A DNA stretch of 63,356 bases, filler included. It is 8 parts of 8 records of this genome, joined end to end, with 100 filler letters (N's around TTAATTAATTAA, not from the genome) between each part and the next. Parts side by side here need not be neighbours in the genome. Positions count along the whole stretch, not along the records: positions 12,615 to 25,726 come from SRR31147125_17331; 7 more parts are not named here. One strand, given 5' to 3'. The position numbers and the translations under genes were made by a program. Under the pieces are notes generated by a model that made no database searches, was not told where the DNA came from, and was given only the letters and a program-made list of their open reading frames with translations. Shown here in pieces: positions 12,615 through 30,523 of the stretch (its first letter is position 1; each line of letters starts with the position of its first letter).

Positions 12615-12857
12615 TTTACTCTGTATTAAATTAATCTGGTGTTTTTTTTAAAAATGTTGTAATATATAAAAGGTCCGGCAAGCACTTGTTTTTTTCAGGT
12701 CTATGATTTGAAATAAAATAAGAGCTTTTCGGGCCTTGCTGTGTCACATTCAATTTGAAAATAATAATCAATTTACAAAGCGAATTAATAAATTTGTCAT
12801 AGTCGCTTTTTCTATCATTAAGAATATTTGTTTAACACAACATCAAGAGGTTCATTT

Positions 12858-14057
12858 ATGTCTGGTCGCAAGTTGCAATTGTTCATTTTTTTGTTTTTTA
12901 TTTCTAGTCTTAAAGTCAGTTCACAAACTCTTATAAAAGGACCATATGTCCAGAATATACAAAAAGATCGTGCGACCGTTTGTTGGGTCACGCAAGAGTC
13001 TGTTGTGAAATTTGGCGAAAAAGCCAATTTACTTGATCGTAGTTCAGATGAGTTTCAGGTTCATGAAATAGTTCTTGATAACCTTAAACCGAATACAACC
13101 TTTCATTATGATGTTGGATTTGGGAAAAAAGGGAATGGTTCTTTTAAAACAGCCCCGGAATATGGTGAATCTTTTCGATTTGTTATCATTGGTGACACCC
13201 GTTATGCTGATAAACCACGGGACGTTCAGGCCAAACTGATTAGCGCTATTGAAAAACAGAAACCTGCGCTTGTGATAAATACCGGAGATCTGGTTACAAG
13301 TGGACATAATACTCTACATTGGGATACTTTTTTTAGTATGAATAAAAGTTTGTTAAAAACCGTACCCTATTATGTGAGTCTTGGTAACCATGAAGAAAAT
13401 TCACCTTATTTCTACCAATATTTTTCATTCCCGGAAAAAGAAAATTACTACTCTTTTAATTGGAGCAATTGCCATTTTGTGGTTTTGGATTCAGAAGGAC
13501 CTCACGATTCTCCCGAGTTTCCTATGGATTATCAGGCGCGTAAGATGCACCAGGAAAAAGTCGAGACTTTTTGGGACGATCAGCTTACGTGGTTATGCAA
13601 TGACCTGAAAAATCATCGCGAATATGATTTTACCTTTGTTTATATGCATCAGCCATTGTTTAGTCTTAAGGATTCCCGTCGTGAGGAACAAAAAGAATTT
13701 CAGAAACGTTTCGCTCAGATATTTAGCGATTTTGAGATTGATGTCGTTTATTCGGGTCATGATCATAACTACCAGCGGCATTATGTGGATCCGGTTCATT
13801 ATGTTGTAAGCGCCGGTGGCGGTGCCAGTCTTTATGGATTTGGAAAACCTTTTGCCAAATATACGCGAAAATTAGCCTTGAAACATCATTATGTTCTAGT
13901 GGAAGTCGATGGCAAAAAATTAAAATCCACTGCGTTAACTGCAGATGGTGAGGTGCTTGATCAATTTTCTATTCCATTCGATAATAAAAAAGATAAAGCC
14001 CGTGCGAATAAGGAACTAAAATTAAATTCAGAAGGTACATATGATACCTGGTTTTAG
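12858..14057 (+). CDS. Exported metallophosphoesterase (purple acid phosphatase-like, FN3-type N-terminal domain)
   Basis: GDTR, TGDLV, LGNHE, MHQP, SGHDH metal-binding motifs; signal peptide; GPYVQ N-terminus. Confidence 0.9.
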   Translation: MSGRKLQLFIFLFFISSLKVSSQTLIKGPYVQNIQKDRATVCWVTQESVVKFGEKANLLDRSSDEFQVHEIVLDNLKPNTTFHYDVGFGKKGNGSFKTAPEYGESFRFVIIGDTRYADKPRDVQAKLISAIEKQKPALVINTGDLVTSGHNTLHWDTFFSMNKSLLKTVPYYVSLGNHEENSPYFYQYFSFPEKENYYSFNWSNCHFVVLDSEGPHDSPEFPMDYQARKMHQEKVETFWDDQLTWLCNDLKNHREYDFTFVYMHQPLFSLKDSRREEQKEFQKRFAQIFSDFEIDVVYSGHDHNYQRHYVDPVHYVVSAGGGASLYGFGKPFAKYTRKLALKHHYVLVEVDGKKLKSTALTADGEVLDQFSIPFDNKKDKARANKELKLNSEGTYDTWF

Positions 14058-14122
14058 AAAGGCTATATATTCAAAAGATCGAATGATGAAAAAGTAATAT
14101 GTTAAATGAGATGGGTTAAAGA

Positions 14123-15193
14123 ATGAAACAGAAACAAGAAACGAAACAAGTAATACGTGGATCAATATCGATGAGTGCTTTTTTCTGTATGGTGCTATTT
14201 TGTAAGATGTTACCATTGCCATTGTTTTCTGCTGATACCCCATCGCAGGAAAAAGTCGGGATGCCTAAAATCGCTTTTGAATCGCTTGTTGTTGATGCCG
14301 GCGTTTTTAAACCGGGTGAAAAGGCTATAGGGGAATTTATCGTAAAAAATGAGGGGGATGCCGATCTTGTTATCAAAAGAGTTGCTCCTACGTGAGGTTG
14401 CACAGTGGCTGAGTATGATAAGGTCATTCCGGCTGGTCAGTCGGGAAAGATAACAGCAAGTCTGGATACAAAAAAGTATCGTGGTGAACTTGAGAAAACC
14501 ATTATCGTGATATCCAATGATCTGAAAAATCCAAAGGCAACAGTTACCCTGCAATGCCGGGTTCTTGGTATTAAGATTTTACCTGCTGCCAGAGCTTATT
14601 TTAATGCACAGGCAGGCAGTGCAAATACAGAAGAATTGACATTAGCGACAATGGGAGAAGGTCCTTTGACCATTTATACAAAATCCAGCAATCCAAATGT
14701 GATTGTCAAATTGGAGAAATTAACAGATAACGCGCGACCAGAGTCTGACACAGAATATTGGCAGCAATATAAACTTTTGGTTACCATTCCTGAAAATTTT
14801 CCTGATGGACGTTTCGCTGGTAAGGTGACATTAGTAACAGATAGTATGTATGATCCATCAGTAAGTATTCCTGTTGCCGGTATGGTTCACCCAAGTGTGG
14901 TCGTGTCTCCCAAAAAGGTAAGAATGCCTGTTGACAAGGATGGAAATATTATGTCACGAATAATCAGGGTGACAAAAAAACATGGCACTTCCTTTAAAAT
15001 ATCAAAATTGATAACCGAACCAAAAGCTTTGAATGCCGAGTTGAAAGAAACCCAAAAGGGTAAGCAGTATACAATCACGCTGAACTGGATTGAGGCTGCC
15101 TCGTCTAGTGTCAATAAAGGTAAAGTTGTATTATATACTAACGATAAGAAAATGCCGATCATCACAGTGCCTGTAGCGGTTTATAGGCGTTGA
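14123..15193 (+). CDS. Exported DUF1573/Ig-like domain protein with in-frame TGA (candidate selenoprotein, T-U-G-C-T)
   Basis: ORFs 14123-14395 and 14405-15193 are in the same frame. Read-through gives F.VKNEGDADLVIKRVAPT(TGA)GCTVAEYDKVIPAGQSGKI, matching the DUF1573 pattern N.G...L.I..V..sCGCT......I.PG..G.I. Confidence 0.8.
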
Positions 15194-15309
15194 GTCAATG
15201 GTGGAGTAACATAAGCTTTTGAACAGATTTTGTTTTACTCTTTATTTTCTAATATGATAACAGACATTCCTTTCGTTTATCAGAATATACTATTATTCCG
15301 GAGCCTTTC

Positions 15310-16023
15310 ATGCAAATTCTCAAGAATCTTTATCAGGTTGGTGGTAGCCTGAATGGCGTTACAAGTACGATATTGGCAGATCCTTTTGATGATGGTAATG
15401 TTTATGTGCTCGACCTTAATGAAGAACTTGTCCTGTTTGATTGTGGTAACGGAGAAACACTGAAACAAATTCTAACCAACATGGAGTATTGGGGACTTGA
15501 TGTAGAAAAAGTGTCAACTTGTTTTCTCACTCATTCTCATTGGGATCATGCTGGAGCAGCTCACCTGCTTAAAAAGCGCAATATCAGCCTCGTTGCACAT
15601 CCGGTTGCAGCTGAGGCTATTGCATGCGGAGATGAACGGTGCCAGGGATATCTGTATCATAAAGAATTTGTACCTTGTGAAACAGATAAAACGTTATTTG
15701 ATGGTCAGAGTCTCAAAATGAATGGTTTAAAAATTCAGGCACGCCATTTCCCTGGCCATACCCTCGGTTGTACAGCATTTTGTTTTGAGTGGGAGGGTAA
15801 AAGGGTGGTTGTATCCGGAGATATTATCGGTACATTGGGATATGGTTATTTTGGCTGGGATGGATCATTTGATTTTGATAAAAAAGTGTACCTTCAATCT
15901 CTGACACAATTTGCCAAACTGGATTTTGATATCATGCTACCCGGACATGGTCTCATCTATTTTGATGGACCCAGGCGTCGGATTGAAGAAGCTCTGAATG
16001 AAGCTTTGATACAATGGCGATAA
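15310..16023 (+). CDS. MBL-fold metallo-hydrolase
   Basis: FDCG, THSHWDHAG, PGHT, SGD and PGHG motifs. Confidence 0.9.
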   Translation: MQILKNLYQVGGSLNGVTSTILADPFDDGNVYVLDLNEELVLFDCGNGETLKQILTNMEYWGLDVEKVSTCFLTHSHWDHAGAAHLLKKRNISLVAHPVAAEAIACGDERCQGYLYHKEFVPCETDKTLFDGQSLKMNGLKIQARHFPGHTLGCTAFCFEWEGKRVVVSGDIIGTLGYGYFGWDGSFDFDKKVYLQSLTQFAKLDFDIMLPGHGLIYFDGPRRRIEEALNEALIQWR

Positions 16024-23538: not shown

Positions 23539-25301
23539 TCACGTTTCAGATCCATTGTTTTCTTTATCAGAGTTTTCATGACCATTTTTCACCCACATGA
23601 ACTTTCTTTGTAATGTGGCTGAATAGTAATTATCCAAAACATCATAGTCCACTTTTTTTCCCCACTCGTGAAAAACGCGCGGATCAATATACGATTTTTG
23701 GCTTGTTCCAAGGTTCCAGGTTCTGTTTTTTGGGCAATGGCCATTTGTGCCTTTAATTTCCCCAACTGAACCCGTGCTTTTTCCTGTCTTTGTTTAGTGG
23801 TCTCGATTCGACGTTTCATTGCCTCAATACGTTTCTGGTAGCGTACCCGGATTTTTTTCTGCTTATCCGATTTAGTTTCAGCCTTGATTTTTTCTTTTGA
23901 TTCAACCCGTAAATCTTTGAGTTTTTCGGTAAATTCTTTCTGCTGTACTTTGTATTTTTCGATTCGTTCTTTAATGCGTTGTTCTCTTTCCTTGTACCGC
24001 TGTTTTCTTTCAGACCAGTTAGTTGGCGCTTGTTTTGTATGATTGCATAAAATCGCTGCTTCTGTATTTGCCTTGGTTGCTGCTTCCCATTTTCTGTATT
24101 CCGGATCATCTTTAACGACATCAGAGCTCTCCAGGCTTTCTCTCACTGCTTTGGAAGCATGGTGAGTACGGAATACCTTGGCTGTTAAACCGGGCATAGC
24201 TTCAGACAGGAAGGAATTTACGTTTCGACTACTGACATCAGGAAAAAGTTGTGGTTTGTTATGAGCAGGATGGTTTCTCTTGTTTTTACCACTTCTGGAT
24301 GGTCTGGCATTTTCAATTAGTTCTTTCAGGTTTTTCTGAACCTGTTCAGAGAGTTCGATCTTTTTGTGCCATAAAACCGAATCCTTACCCAAAAACCTGA
24401 ATTCAGCTGTGCCATTGTTGTGCAGTTTAATATGTTCCGGTCTGAGTGTGGTTGCACCTACCGTATCCGCTTCATCCGGATCTTTTTCATCACCCACTCT
24501 AAGACAAAGTATGTCAATTAGGTGACAGGCTGTTGCGATTTTTCGGATTCGTGCTTTTTCGTTTTCAAGACCGGCTCTGATATGCTCCTGAACCTGTTCA
24601 ATGTTCGAATCCAGTTCAGTTGCTTTGTCAAATTTTTGCGCCTCCCGTTCCTGTTTGATGGGCGCCGTATCATGCAGCCAGATATATTTTAACTTGTTGG
24701 ACAATTTGTCATCCCAGCGGGCTACCCAAAGTGAATCGGGCTGCCAGACGATTTCATTCCATTCACCAGGAGGGGTGGGAGCGTCAGGGCTCAGGTTCAA
24801 GGTAATATCCGATTTTTGGGCCCCTTCTTTCCAGCGTCCTCTAAGAGGATGTTTGCCACGCCCCATAAAGATACCGCTGGGTTCTACGAGGTAATTGGCT
24901 AATTCGATTGTTTCACCGTTTGCTATGGCTGTTCCGTATTCCTCCTTCAAGGCTTCCCGTATCTCTTTCCGTTGTGCAGCCAGGGCTTTACGATCTTCCT
25001 TACTCATCCGTGCTTTTGCTTCCCGTTCGGCAATAACTATATCATGAACCTGTGAAAAATCGATTTCACTTATAACCAGTGTTTTTCTATATCCCAGTTC
25101 TTTGCTGAAATCAGTTAGGAAATTTCGAATGAATACGGAATCTTTTACATATGGAGTACCTAATTTTTTTGCCCATGCAAGAGCCATCTCCTCCTGTTTA
25201 GGCGTAAGCTTTACTTTTTCATCCTTGATGGATATGCAAAGCCCCTGATATTCGGGAGGATCTGGTACAATGACGCCTTTGTGAATCAATTGTTCTAACA
25301 A
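23539..25301 (-). CDS. DNA topoisomerase IB, large eukaryote/thaumarchaeal type; frameshift in A-run 23726-23731
   Basis: HKGVIVP, EPSGIFMGRGKHPLRG, LRVGDEKD, DTVGATTLR, FLGKDS, LTAKVFRT, ILCNH and a coiled-coil linker. The shifted frame gives WNLGTSQKSYIDPR (catalytic Tyr at 23689-23691) and a stop at 23539. Confidence 0.93.
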
Positions 25302-25826: not shown

Positions 25827-26836
25827 GATGGTCTGGCCGCCGCATTCATGGTCGGCCGTAACCACGATAAGGGTTTCATTGGGATGTTTTTTGTAAAAAG
25901 CCACAGCCTCGGCAACGGCATCATCAAAGGCAATGGTATCGTCAATAGCCGCCCTGGCATCATTGGCATGGCAGGCCCAGTCAATCTTCCCCCCTTCAAC
26001 CATCATGAAAAACCCGTCAGGGTTGTCCAGAAGCCGGATCCCCTCCCGGGTAAACCGGGCAAGGGAAATGCCGTTGGCGGGCCGGTCCAGTTCATACCAC
26101 ATGGCCCCGGTTTCTCCGCCGGCATCCTGGAGATTGTCCCGGGCGATGACCCGGGTTCCGGGGTCCTGGGCCTGGAGGGTGGCCAGATCCTCGGTGATGA
26201 TAAACCCGTTATTTTTGGCCCTGGGTTCCACATCCGAATCATTGTCCTTGTTCCAATGCCCCCCGGCAAAATAGTCAAAATCAGAATCGGCCAGCTGCTC
26301 GGCAATCTCATAATAATTTTTCCGGGTGGCGGTGTGAGAATAAAACACAGCCGGGGTGGCGTGGTTGATGGTAACCGAAGAGACAATCCCCACTTTCATC
26401 CCCTTTTCTTTGGCTTTCTCGGCCAGGGAATTATAGGGTCTGGTGGTGGTGGGATCCATGGAAATTACATTGATATTGGTTTTCATGCCGCAGGCCAGGG
26501 CCGTACCTGCAGCAGCAGAACCGGTGATCAGGCGATTGTTGGCATAGGTAGTGGTCATCCCCTGAACCGGAAACCGGCTCAGGGTTAACAATTCTGCTTT
26601 TTCCCCCCGGCCGCGGCATCGTCCTGCTGGAGGGCGGCCAGGTAGGCTTCTGCCGCATGGATCTGGACGCTGGCCATACCGTCACCGATAAAATAAAACA
26701 GATATTTGGGGGCAAAGTTGCTCCGTTTGGCACCCTTTTTCGGGGCAGCAAAACCGATTGCCGCACTCAGGGTCAGGCAGGTCAGGCAGATCGCTGCCAG
26801 ACGTCCGGATTTGATCATAAGACGTAAACACCTCAT
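25827..26836 (-). CDS. Alkaline phosphatase PhoA family (3' truncated; frameshift in homopolymers at about 26597-26608)
   Basis: Signal peptide, FIGDGM, ITGSAAAGTALA, HATPA, MVEGGKIDWACH, TADHE. Confidence 0.9.
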
Positions 26837-27217
26837 TTTTCACGACTCCTCATATTTAATTCAATTACGGGTATTGGATAAAACAAACGGTATAAACCAC
26901 AAAATTGACTGGCCTTTTGGGTTACCACCTCCTTTCCTTTGAGCGGCCGGGCCTTTGATAAAAAAGCTTTTGTGCGGATCCGGCCACCTGCCTTCCCGGA
27001 GGAAGGCCCGAAAGAAAGATATGTCCGGAAACCTGAATGAACTGGCCTGCAATTGGGGGCACTATATAGGTCGGACGCTTGTATCCGATTAGCCAAATAA
27101 AAGGAAATGATTTGGATGATGACAAGAGCCCCCTCACGGTTTTAGTCCTTGACAGGATCTTGGAGATCTCATAGATTGCCTCAAAAAATTAGGAAAACCA
27201 AACAAGAAAGGATATCC

Positions 27218-28213
27218 ATGGCGTCCCAGGGATTGCCCCGGCAGGACCGGCCCGGACCTTCACAAATTATCACAGCCATGCCCTCTGACACAGAACCGGG
27301 ACAGGACCGAAACATAAATCTGCGCCCGGGAATGAGCCTGGTCTTTACGGATTTCACCACCACCGCCCCCTTTGAAACCCGGGTGGCAGAAACCGCCGCC
27401 CCCCTGGAATTCTGCTTCTGCCTCAAAGGCGGTGTCCGCTGCCTGGTCCCCGACCTTAAGGAAGAATTTGAAATCACCAGGGGACAGTGCAATATCAGCT
27501 TCTTCCCCACCCAAGAGGCATGATGGCCTTTCCCCCATCATCCAGGATTCACTTTTTGACCCTGCGCATCACCCCCCAGGCTCTTGAACAGATGCTCAAA
27601 AGCTGTAAAGCCCCCTGCCCGGAGCGCTCACACGGATCGCCCAGGGCCGGCCCGCTCTTTTTTCAAGGCCGGTCCCCCTTCGGCCGCCATGGAAATGGCG
27701 GTCCACCAAATCGCCAACTGCGCCTATTCCGGCCAATTTGCCGCCCTTTATCTCGAAGGCATGGCCATTGAACTTCTGGCCCACAGCCTGGATCTGCTGG
27801 CTGCTGCCCCCAAGCCAGAGCCGAATCTTAGTGCCAGGGACATGGAACGGATCAGAGAGGCCCGGCATCTTCTGGCCCAGGATATCCTGAATCCCCCTTC
27901 CCTGGTGGAACTGGCCCGGAAGGTGGGAATCAATGATTTTAAGCTTAAAAAAGGATTCCGCCAATTGTTCGGCACCACGGTATTCGGGTTTGTCCACCAC
28001 CGGCGCATGGCCGATGCCCGGCAGATGCTCCAGGACGGCCGTTTCAATGTGACCGAAGTGGCCGGTGCCGTGGGGTACACCAATCCCAGCCATTTTGCCG
28101 CAGCCTTCCGTAAACGCTTCGGGATTAACCCCAGTGCACTTCTCACAGAGGCCCGCCGGAATACTTCCGGAAAAACAGCTGCCCGGGTCGGGCATCATCC
28201 GTCCCGGGGCTGA
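27218..28213 (+). CDS. AraC-family (PchR-like) transcriptional regulator, at least two frameshifts
   Basis: C-terminal PPSLVELARKVGINDFKLKKGFRQLFGTTVFG...VGYTNPSHFAAAFRKRFG. The N-terminal parts lie in ORFs 27149 and 27487. Confidence 0.85.
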
Positions 28214-28278
28214 AAAAATCCGTTTCAGGGTGGTGAATATCCGTGTCCTGGACTATTCAGTTAGGCCAACCTTATAAT
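28213..28278 (+). promoter_or_regulatory. Putative AraC-activated promoter with tandem direct repeats
   Basis: ATCCGTTTCAGG (28218) and ATCCGTGTCCTG (28239) are 21 bp apart; TGGACT at 28249-28254 and TATAAT at 28273-28278. Confidence 0.6.
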
Positions 28279-28302
28279 TCTTTATAAAAGGAGAAATTTT
28301 AG

Positions 28303-30428
28303 ATGAAACCAAGACCATGGGGCCTGCTTTTGGCAGGCCTTCTACTTCTGGGTACGGGGTCCCAGGGGATGGCAGCCTCCCAGACGCCGGCCCAAAAGGA
28401 CGGGCACACCCTTGAATCCATTACTATAACAGCGGAAAAACGAAAGCAGAACCTCCAGGAAGTCACAAACAGCGTCACCGTGCTTTCGGACCTTAATATC
28501 GAGGATGCCGGCATTAAATCCACCTTTGACATCCATTCCCAGGTACCCAACCTCAGGAGCTTTGAAACGGCCAGCCGGGTCTACTTCAGTATATTCAATT
28601 TCAGGGGCATCGCCAATACGGCATTCGGGGATCCGGCGTTCACCCTTTATATAGATGATGTGCCTGCCACGGATTTTTACGATTTTAACAACACCCTTTT
28701 TGATATCCAACGCATTGAGGTGCTCAGGGGCCCCCAGGGCACATTATACGGCCAGAACACCGAAGCCGGGGTCATCAACATTATTTCCAAAAAACCGGGA
28801 AACACCCTTGAGGGACGGGTACAAACGGAAATCACCAATTATGCCGGCCGGGAAATTTCTGCAGGCATCCGGGGGCCCATTGTCCAGGATAAACTCTTTT
28901 TCGGTTTTTCAGGCCTGACAGGAGAACGGGAGGGATATGTGGAAAACATCCACACCGGAGAAGATGTGGACAGCCGAAAGACCCTCAGCGGCCGGGGCCA
29001 GCTCAGATGGACCCCTCCAAAGACCTGGACCTCATGCTCACCCTTGCTGGAGAAGACTTTGATGACGGGGGATGGTCCTACCTGCCCCAGGATAGAAACG
29101 CCTATGCCCAGATGTTCGGCAGCCCGGATATCGGGGAATTCCAGACATGGACCGACCACAGGGGCAAGGCGGACCTGAGCCGGGACAGCCAGGCCCTGAG
29201 GATTTCATGGGATCTGCCCGGCATGAACCTGGTTGCCGTGACCGCCCGGAAACATTTAGACAGCCAGGATACATTGGACGGAGATTTTACCATCCAGCCC
29301 ATGTTTATCGGCTTTAACCGGAACAAGACCACCCATTGGAGCCAGGAAATCCGTCTGGCCTCGGCAGATCTCGGGGCCCCCCTCTCCTGGATTATCGGGG
29401 GGTATTACAGCCATAAGGATGCCCGCTGGCTCACCGGATATCAATCCGATATGGACAACGGGTTCGGCCAGGGCCTGCCCAAAGGGGTGCGCCAGGAATA
29501 TGATGCCGATTTTGAGGCCAAAACCTATGCCGTATTCGGGAAAGCAGGGTACCGCTTTTTTAACCAGGCACTGGGGATCAACGCAGGCCTCCGTTTTGAA
29601 CAAGCGGAACGGGCCATGGAGCGGGATATCCGCTTTAATAACCTTCCCACTGCCCCCCATGTGGATGATGAGCAGAAAAACCGGGTCATCCTGCCCAAAA
29701 TCGCCCTGGACTACAGGTTCACCCCTGATATCATGTGCTATACCAGTGCGGCCAAGGGATACCGGGCCGGGGGATTCAGCCATGCGGTCAGTGACCCGGC
29801 ATATGTGGCATTTGACCCCGAGACCATCTGGACCTATGAACTGGGTGCCAGGACCACCTGGCTCAACCGCAGGCTCATGGTCAACCTCACTGGATTTTAT
29901 TCGGATGTAAAGGATTTCCAGGATTCAGTCCACCTGGACCCCATGACCGTGATCCAGACCAATGCGGCCGAAGCCGCCATCTGGGGCCTGGAAGCGGAAA
30001 TTTCCTTCCGCCCCGTTGCAGGCCTGGACATCACAGGCTCCCTGGGATGGATCAATGCCCGGTATGAAGATTACAGGGAAGATGCCACGGGAAAGGATTT
30101 CAGCGATAATAAGGTCATCCAGACCCCGGAATGCGAATATAACCTGGCGGTCCAGTACCGGTTCCCCTGGGGTCTCTATCTTCGGGCCGAGGCCGACGGC
30201 AATACCGGGTATTATTTTGACCGGGCCAACCAGTACGACCAGGACGGGTATATCCTTTTCCACGCCAAAGCCGGCTTTGAGACGGAAAACTGGGATATCA
30301 CCTTTTTCGGTTCCAACCTGGGGGACAAAGAATACCACCTGGCCGGAAGCGAAATTGCCCCGGGCCTGATCATGGGCAATGTGGGTGCACCCAGGACCCT
30401 GGGCTGCACGGTCAGCTACCGGTTCTGA
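28303..30428 (+). CDS. TonB-dependent receptor (siderophore/metal type); frameshift in C-run at about 29012-29015
   Basis: Signal peptide, TonB box LESITITAEK, RIEVLRGPQGTLYG, GYRAGGF, C-terminal PRTLGCTVSYRF. Confidence 0.92.
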
Positions 30429-30444
30429 TAGGACCAGCCCAATA

Positions 30445-30489
30445 AAAAAGCCGGGAAGGACTGCCCATAGGGCGCCTTCCCGGCTTTTT
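30445..30489. terminator. Bidirectional terminator
   Basis: AAAAAGCCGGGAAGG/CCTTCCCGGCTTTTT between convergent genes. Confidence 0.85.
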
Positions 30490-30523
30490 CATTTTCCTCA
30501 GTGGGAAACCATAAGGGTATATC

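Follow-up and report, generated by a model that had tools for sequence, protein, structure and literature searches.

The DNA analysed here, a stretch of 63,356 nucleotides (filler included) that we refer to as the window, contains on its plus strand a predicted selenoprotein gene whose neighbours encode a calcineurin-like phosphoesterase (12828–14057), an MBL-fold hydrolase (15310–16023), an Hsp20 protein and two sulfatases. The frame that opens at ATG 14123 runs to TGA 15191–15193 with a sole interruption, the TGA at 14393–14395. Standard ORF calling yields two pieces in the same frame, 14123–14395 (90 aa) and 14405–15193 (262 aa, with a GTG start); read-through gives a product of 356 aa containing U91-G92-C93 in the context ...VAPT-U-G-C-TVAEYD.... 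The original prediction had described a gene split by this in-frame TGA and by nothing else, and both the frame check and the ORF calling confirm it. Conserved coding sequence lies on both sides of the TGA, and the orthologues at loci L001, L002 and L003 are built in the same way as the window gene. Coordinates of all features are collected in Table 1.

Table 1. Predicted features of the DUF1573 gene and of the RNA downstream of its in-frame TGA.
Feature	Position	Strand	Details
Whole selenoprotein gene, predicted	14123–15193	+	356 codons and terminal TGA 15191–15193
Alternative start ATG	14171	+	
N-terminal leader, residues 1–37	14123–14233	+	Basic n-region, hydrophobic core, ...LFSA before D38
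Ig-like domain 1 (DUF1573 PF07610/HYDIN-VesB-type), residues 50–138	14270–14536	+	Holds the U-G-C motif
In-frame TGA, predicted selenocysteine codon U91	14393–14395	+	Context ACG TGA GGT TGC ACA
U91-G92-C93 motif	14393–14401	+	Tight turn between strands 82–89 and 94–98 (model)
Proximal SECIS helix, predicted	GUGGCU 14405–14410 with GGUCAU 14422–14427	+	Columns 13–18 with 30–35
Distal SECIS hairpin, predicted	UCCGGCU 14428–14434 with AGUCGGG 14439–14445	+	Columns 36–41 with 48–53
Ig-like beta-sandwich domain 2, residues 149–256	14567–14890	+	Model; no Pfam match
Ig-like beta-sandwich domain 3, residues 259–354	14897–15184	+	Model; no Pfam match

The read-through protein matches PF07610 (DUF1573) across the TGA, at residues 50–138 (E 2.3e-20; 72.9 bits against a gathering cutoff of 26.1), and the same domain is matched by PF22544 (HYDIN/VesB Ig-like; E 9.4e-15). 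An AlphaFold2 model computed from a 38-sequence alignment (mean pLDDT 88.0, pTM 0.73) consists of an N-terminal helix at residues 16–29 followed by three beta-sandwiches (approximately 48–147, 149–256 and 259–354), the first of which is modelled with pLDDT above 90. The flanks of the helix are of low confidence. Nearly all homologues likewise have hydrophobic N-termini. The leader of residues 1–37 probably serves as a signal peptide of the Sec type, with a cleavage site placed by eye, or else as an anchor. The hydrophobic leader and the Ig-like folds of the original prediction are thus borne out by the Pfam matches and by the model.

Residues N76, P89, U/C91, G92, C93, V95, D99, G105, G108 and P263 are invariant across selenocysteine (Sec) and Cys forms of the protein. 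P89, U/C91, G92 and C93 are identical in 38/38 sequences, and the TGA column is invariant in alignment A5. A sequence search up to E 1 found no solved structure of any relative, and Foldseek against the PDB returned generic tandem Ig/ASH-type domains only. Its top matches, Ig-repeat proteins of the ciliary central apparatus and Ig tandems of titin, offer no functional clue. To HYDIN/CFA65/VesB-type (ASH/PapD-like) Ig domains the likeness is one of fold only (TM 0.2–0.3 over the three-domain chain, 8–16% identity), and we know of no U/C-G-C motif in such proteins.

Reading the ORF list of the window with TGA as U, by inspection, gave no convincing second candidate for an in-frame TGA. No second DUF1573 domain, no tRNA and no Rfam family at its gathering score were found within the window.

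Homologues with TGA or TGC at the motif

A protein search produced 55 homologues. The closest of them (P0003–P0015) share 51–57% identity with the query, are 258–263 aa long and cover only its C-terminal 73%; the nine that were aligned all start at a Val codon four codons past the TGA column, the mark left by gene callers that halt at a conserved TGA. Distant homologues (337–385 aa) carry C-G-C-T at the TGA column, which in the full-length Cys homologues corresponds to the first Cys of an invariant P-x-C-G-C. The U-G-C of the window protein therefore stands at the C-G-C position of the family, and this column alignment upholds the proposal that TGA replaces the first Cys of the DUF1573 motif.

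DNA was fetched for 84 loci, 31 of them in species genomes and 53 in metagenomes, giving 85 sources together with the window. A motif scan of these sources located 87 sites in 76 of them, 72 with TGA and 15 with TGC; as retrieval relied on peptide patterns ([MV]A[ED]YDxVIP and similar) biased to the Sec-type motif, the proportion of TGA to TGC does not reflect a natural frequency. The check for alternation of Cys and TGA across genomes, suggested with the original prediction, thus has a positive outcome. The distinct sequences comprise 62 Sec forms and 13 Cys forms. Translation of the frame at L001, L002 and L003 gives ...PT*GCTVA[E/D]YD..., the stop being TGA, and the N-terminal part is conserved in frame.

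Cys-form DUF1573 proteins, for example those of Thermoanaerobaculia/Acidobacteriota (P0017–P0051, L005, L006), resemble the window protein in length, signal peptide, three-domain build and the invariant core P-x-C-G-C-x-V...D...G..G. They differ from it in having TGC at the column, in sharing 25–34% identity only and in having no distal hairpin of the kind described below; several of them also carry FD-K-V-x-A-P where the Sec type has YD-x-V-I-P.

A quick maximum-likelihood tree (IQ-TREE) was computed from 93 rows, 47 Sec and 46 Cys, all 3′-complete and 300–420 aa long. The window gene falls in a seven-row all-Sec clade (SH-aLRT 100), whose other members are genes of two MAGs of Calditrichota, of one MAG with the label Actinomycetota and of three contigs from metagenomes. 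Other all-Sec clades comprise Acidobacteriota (10 rows) and Krumholzibacteriota-type genomes; nested in the latter group is an eight-row Cys clade formed by upstream tandem paralogues. Two changes of the Sec/Cys label suffice on the 93-row tree.

The tandem arrangement itself is seen in L010, L011, L015, L016, L023, L030, L052, L054, L056, L063 and L064, in each of which a Cys-form DUF1573 gene precedes a Sec-form paralogue by about 1.1 kb, with both genes pointing the same way. Such paralogues are a natural Sec/Cys pair within one genome, and those of Krumholzibacteriota offer a clean pair for testing what selenium contributes at a U-x-C motif on an exported Ig-like scaffold.

Two observations concern the taxonomic labels. 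The DUF1573 gene of L003, from the MAG labelled Actinomycetota, is nearly identical with its flanks to that of L002, a Calditrichota MAG, so the MAG label or the binning is probably wrong. A PabB-like protein encoded in the window shares 30–34% identity with its best matches in G001–G003, the genomes carrying the nearest homologues, and close kinship of the window to these MAGs is therefore not supported.

Predicted RNA structure downstream of the UGA

The 72 nt from the TGA onward were placed in gap-free alignments of the 62 Sec forms (A3) and the 13 Cys forms (A4). RNAalifold on the Sec forms predicts two adjoining helices after the UGA. The proximal helix begins 10 nt after the UGA and encloses an 11-nt loop; its cells are paired in 98.6% of cases in Sec forms versus 83.3% in Cys forms. 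Its middle pair connects two third codon positions, both synonymous, and is formed in 53/58 Sec forms (GC 48, CG 4, AU 1) versus 4/13 Cys forms.

The distal hairpin carries the apical loop GGUC (14435–14438). In an eight-pair version (columns 35–42 with 47–54), 81.3% of its cells are paired in Sec forms versus 50.0% in Cys forms, the latter value being no better than that of slid controls. Covariation is seen at pair 39–50 (UA 33, GC 18) and pair 40–49 (CG 32, GU 14), and the covariation score of the stem was attained by none of 500 shuffles. The underlying changes are non-synonymous and coupled (P-A...S-G, P-P...E-G, P-S...G-G), which means that the RNA constrains the protein. Directly 3′ of the UGA there are thus two predicted helices that are specific to Sec forms and show compensatory changes.

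Codon usage in the window clade is also of interest: among columns with conserved residues, identical codons are used in 4 of the 12 columns at residues 92–109 versus 7 of 90 elsewhere, an enrichment just after the TGA with a one-sided Fisher p of 0.024. The helices overlap the strongly conserved VAxYDxVIPxG, so part of their conservation lies at the protein level. A single-sequence fold of 14385–14460 contains the distal hairpin, with a stability no greater than that of shuffles (z = 0.22); informative results came from the comparison of sequences alone.

The fdhF-type SECIS of Escherichia coli is likewise a hairpin within coding sequence, immediately downstream of the UGA, and its apical loop contains G/U, to which the distal loop GGUC of the window may be compared. 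The window differs from it in having two conserved adjoining helices and a GGUC loop that begins about 39 nt after the UGA. This is farther from the UGA than the loop in fdhF, and at or just beyond the usual range of the published bacterial SECIS model.

Decoding of the UGA and competing explanations

Selenocysteine machinery was sought in G001–G003, which carry the nearest homologues and are distinct from the window's own genome. tRNA-Sec exceeds the Rfam cutoff in all three; SelD is likewise over cutoff in 3/3, some copies having one in-frame TGA, and SelB and SelA are each over cutoff in 2/3, with selA adjoining selB in G001. The SelD matches G001:C41:17896–18822 and G002:C356:1904–2827 have one in-frame TGA each, with a second, longer SelD-containing ORF alongside; SelD itself thus appears to be a selenoprotein in G001 and G002.

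The codon itself was compared with other sequence data. When the run that is the likely source was re-assembled independently, one contig (word depth ~34) showed the same TGA and 0 differences over 14000–15300; this excludes an assembler slip and, coming from the same sample, leaves systematic read error as the form of error to consider. Run X3 contains short pieces from relatives, one of them spanning 14390–14451 with 7 differences, which is too little to be of use; run X2 contributed 35 nt only, outside the gene, and run X10 had no match.

The TGA at 14393–14395 is almost certainly a Sec codon, a reading that draws on the conserved TGA, the Sec/Cys alternation, the Sec-form-specific RNA structure and the Sec machinery in the nearest genomes. 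We consider it highly probable that the locus is a single, intact gene and encodes an exported member of the catalogued DUF1573/OS_HP2 selenoprotein family. That the gene is instead a nonsense pseudogene, dead or reduced to a 90-aa stub after a recent C/T-to-A change created the TGA, appears very improbable. One substitution would suffice, the homologues are publicly annotated as truncated proteins of 258–263 aa, and the search for Sec machinery covered the genomes of the nearest homologues only; however, TGA occupies the same column in 62 distinct sequences from at least three well-separated clades, both halves of the gene remain open and conserved, and the RNA structure after the TGA is specific to Sec forms. 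A sequencing or assembly error that masks a true TGC or TGT is, in our estimate, slightly less probable still: indel-type splits elsewhere in the window (reported by the original prediction alone) and a TonB-dependent receptor split across two frames (28303–30428) speak for imperfect sequence, but the contig re-assembled from the same sample at a depth of ~34 is free of differences around the gene, and all seven clade members, from other assemblies, have TGA. Least of all do we credit an organism-wide reassignment of TGA to an amino acid such as Trp or Gly, a notion for which the in-frame TGA itself is the sole argument. TGA terminates the U-G-C gene and 9 of the 33 long open frames of the whole window, which is the behaviour of the standard code and excludes reassignment, called unlikely in the original prediction; furthermore, reading TGA as sense joins few frames into plausible longer genes, and the column aligns with Cys rather than with Trp or Gly.

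Under the preferred reading, a Sec codon in an intact gene, the UGA at 14393–14395 would be decoded by SelB with Sec-tRNA(Sec), and recoding would be directed by RNA within the coding region, namely the proximal helix 10–35 nt and the distal hairpin with its GGUC loop 36–53 nt after the UGA. SelB would bind one of the two helices; which one, we can only infer. The UGA at 15191–15193, having no such element, would terminate the protein. In the predicted product a signal peptide precedes the three Ig-like beta-sandwiches, and Sec91 and Cys93 are placed in a tight beta-turn of domain 1.

Relation to OS_HP2, gene neighbourhood and possible function

The family is not new, as DUF1573/OS_HP2 proteins with a UxC/UGC motif have been in print since 2007. 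OS_HP2 is one of the six selenoprotein families that were newly named from symbionts of Olavius (Zhang & Gladyshev 2007, PMC1976440), and the 2008 GOS paper equates it with pfam07610, gives its motif as UxC and counts 2 Sec versus 354 Cys members (PMC2398784). Reviews also catalogue OS_HP2/DUF1573 with the motif UxC/UGC (PMC9312934, PMC13188914). The passages on the family in this literature contain no protein-level evidence of selenium.

As far as these passages describe it, OS_HP2 shares with the window protein the PF07610 domain, Sec as the first residue of U-G-C (UxC), C-G-C in Cys homologues and a stem-loop downstream of the UGA. According to the same passages it was first seen in deltaproteobacterial worm symbionts, whereas the window clade occurs in Calditrichota-type MAGs, and they make no mention of a three-Ig architecture of ~350 aa or of a two-helix element.

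NF041425, 'OS_HP2 family (seleno)protein' (OS_HP2_seleno), is the best NCBIfam match of the window protein, which scores 84.1 bits against a curated cutoff of 100 bits and so lies outside the bounds of the curated subfamily. Eight further Sec forms score 60.3–97.3 bits, so that 9/9 Sec forms tested are below 100; one of two Cys forms passes (120.9 bits). We attribute the truncated deposits to the Sec codon being read as a stop together with a curated cutoff that excludes these forms, and the NF041425 threshold may thus explain why these genes were deposited as truncated hypothetical proteins.

The novel part is small: the window clade and two others fall short of the NCBIfam cutoff and have truncated entries in public annotation, and the protein consists of three Ig-like domains behind a signal peptide. 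Members from these phyla may already be included in the BSepDB family list or in the supplementary tables of the papers. No new field is opened by these data, and their main value is for annotation, as this gene and dozens of homologues from genomes of the Calditrichota, Acidobacteriota and Krumholzibacteriota types have been deposited as 'hypothetical proteins' with truncated N-termini. The 62 Sec and 13 Cys forms, the Sec-specific two-helix element and the three-domain model could be used to widen NF041425.

The original prediction had also placed the gene in a probable operon with the upstream metallophosphoesterase. None of 10 window neighbours recurs in the 84 related loci (tblastn, E 1e-5), and in the Calditrichota loci the gene is flanked by unrelated ones (for a PorV-like OMP, a Cache fragment, STAS and a protein with a T9SS tail). 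Upstream phosphoesterase genes do occur in 11 loci of the Krumholzibacteriota type, with an identity of only 23% to the phosphoesterase of the window. Given the lack of recurring neighbours and this low identity, the operon was dropped for the window.

In 31 of the 72 Sec-bearing loci, of the Krumholzibacteriota type, a gene for a TPR and AhpC/TSA thioredoxin-like protein lies directly downstream, often followed by genes for a 4Fe-4S dicluster protein (in 20 loci) and for an FAD/NAD oxidoreductase (in 16); L068:2088–3164, L059:4923–6419 and L020:5111–5935 are examples of such downstream genes. Neither the window nor the Calditrichota loci contain this thioredoxin-like neighbour. Its position beside so many Sec-bearing loci is a hint toward redox chemistry, and we lean slightly towards a model in which the U-G-C motif cycles between selenolate/thiolate and selenenylsulfide as an envelope redox site with a thioredoxin-like partner.

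A real Sec codon could also serve a U-G-C that binds or chaperones a soft metal (Cu(I), Hg or Zn) and is not a redox couple. A selenolate and a thiolate two residues apart in an exposed turn would suit linear or low-coordinate binding, and metal-handling proteins are many among the catalogued bacterial selenoproteins (mercuric transport, cation ATPase, CobW-like and YHS proteins in the same literature tables). However, no metal-handling genes were found beside the window gene or its Calditrichota orthologues, and the sole recurrent neighbour found, the thioredoxin-like protein, points to redox. We infer that a selenol/thiol redox couple is favoured, and regard the metal site as somewhat unlikely.

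Building on the redox model, a more far-reaching proposal would join all of these elements. The window protein would belong to an obligately Sec, three-Ig envelope subfamily missed by annotation, its database copies being all truncated and all below the NCBIfam cutoff; its two-helix SECIS would have a distal stem co-evolving with the coding sequence so closely that the encoded residues change together (P-A...S-G to P-P...E-G to P-S...G-G); and the turn with U-G-C would act as the catalytic centre of an extracytoplasmic selenol/thiol redox relay of a new kind, built on an Ig scaffold and kept reduced by thioredoxins of the TlpA type. Taken as a whole, this combination is speculative and rather improbable.

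Two further regions of the window stand apart from the DUF1573 gene. The ORF at 23589–25301 on the minus strand (570 aa) matches both Topoisom_I_N, the DNA-binding fragment of eukaryotic topoisomerase I (E 2.9e-49), and Topoisom_I, the catalytic core (E 1.2e-61); it is unusual for a bacterial contig to encode a complete topoisomerase IB of the eukaryotic type. At ~26000–30500 a block of 54–57% GC stands out from a background of 33–40% GC. It contains an AraC-type regulator (27584–28213), a TonB-dependent receptor in two overlapping frames (Plug 28303–29178, barrel 29007–30428) and long spurious ORFs on both strands, and is possibly a foreign island that carries either a frameshift or an indel from the assembly.
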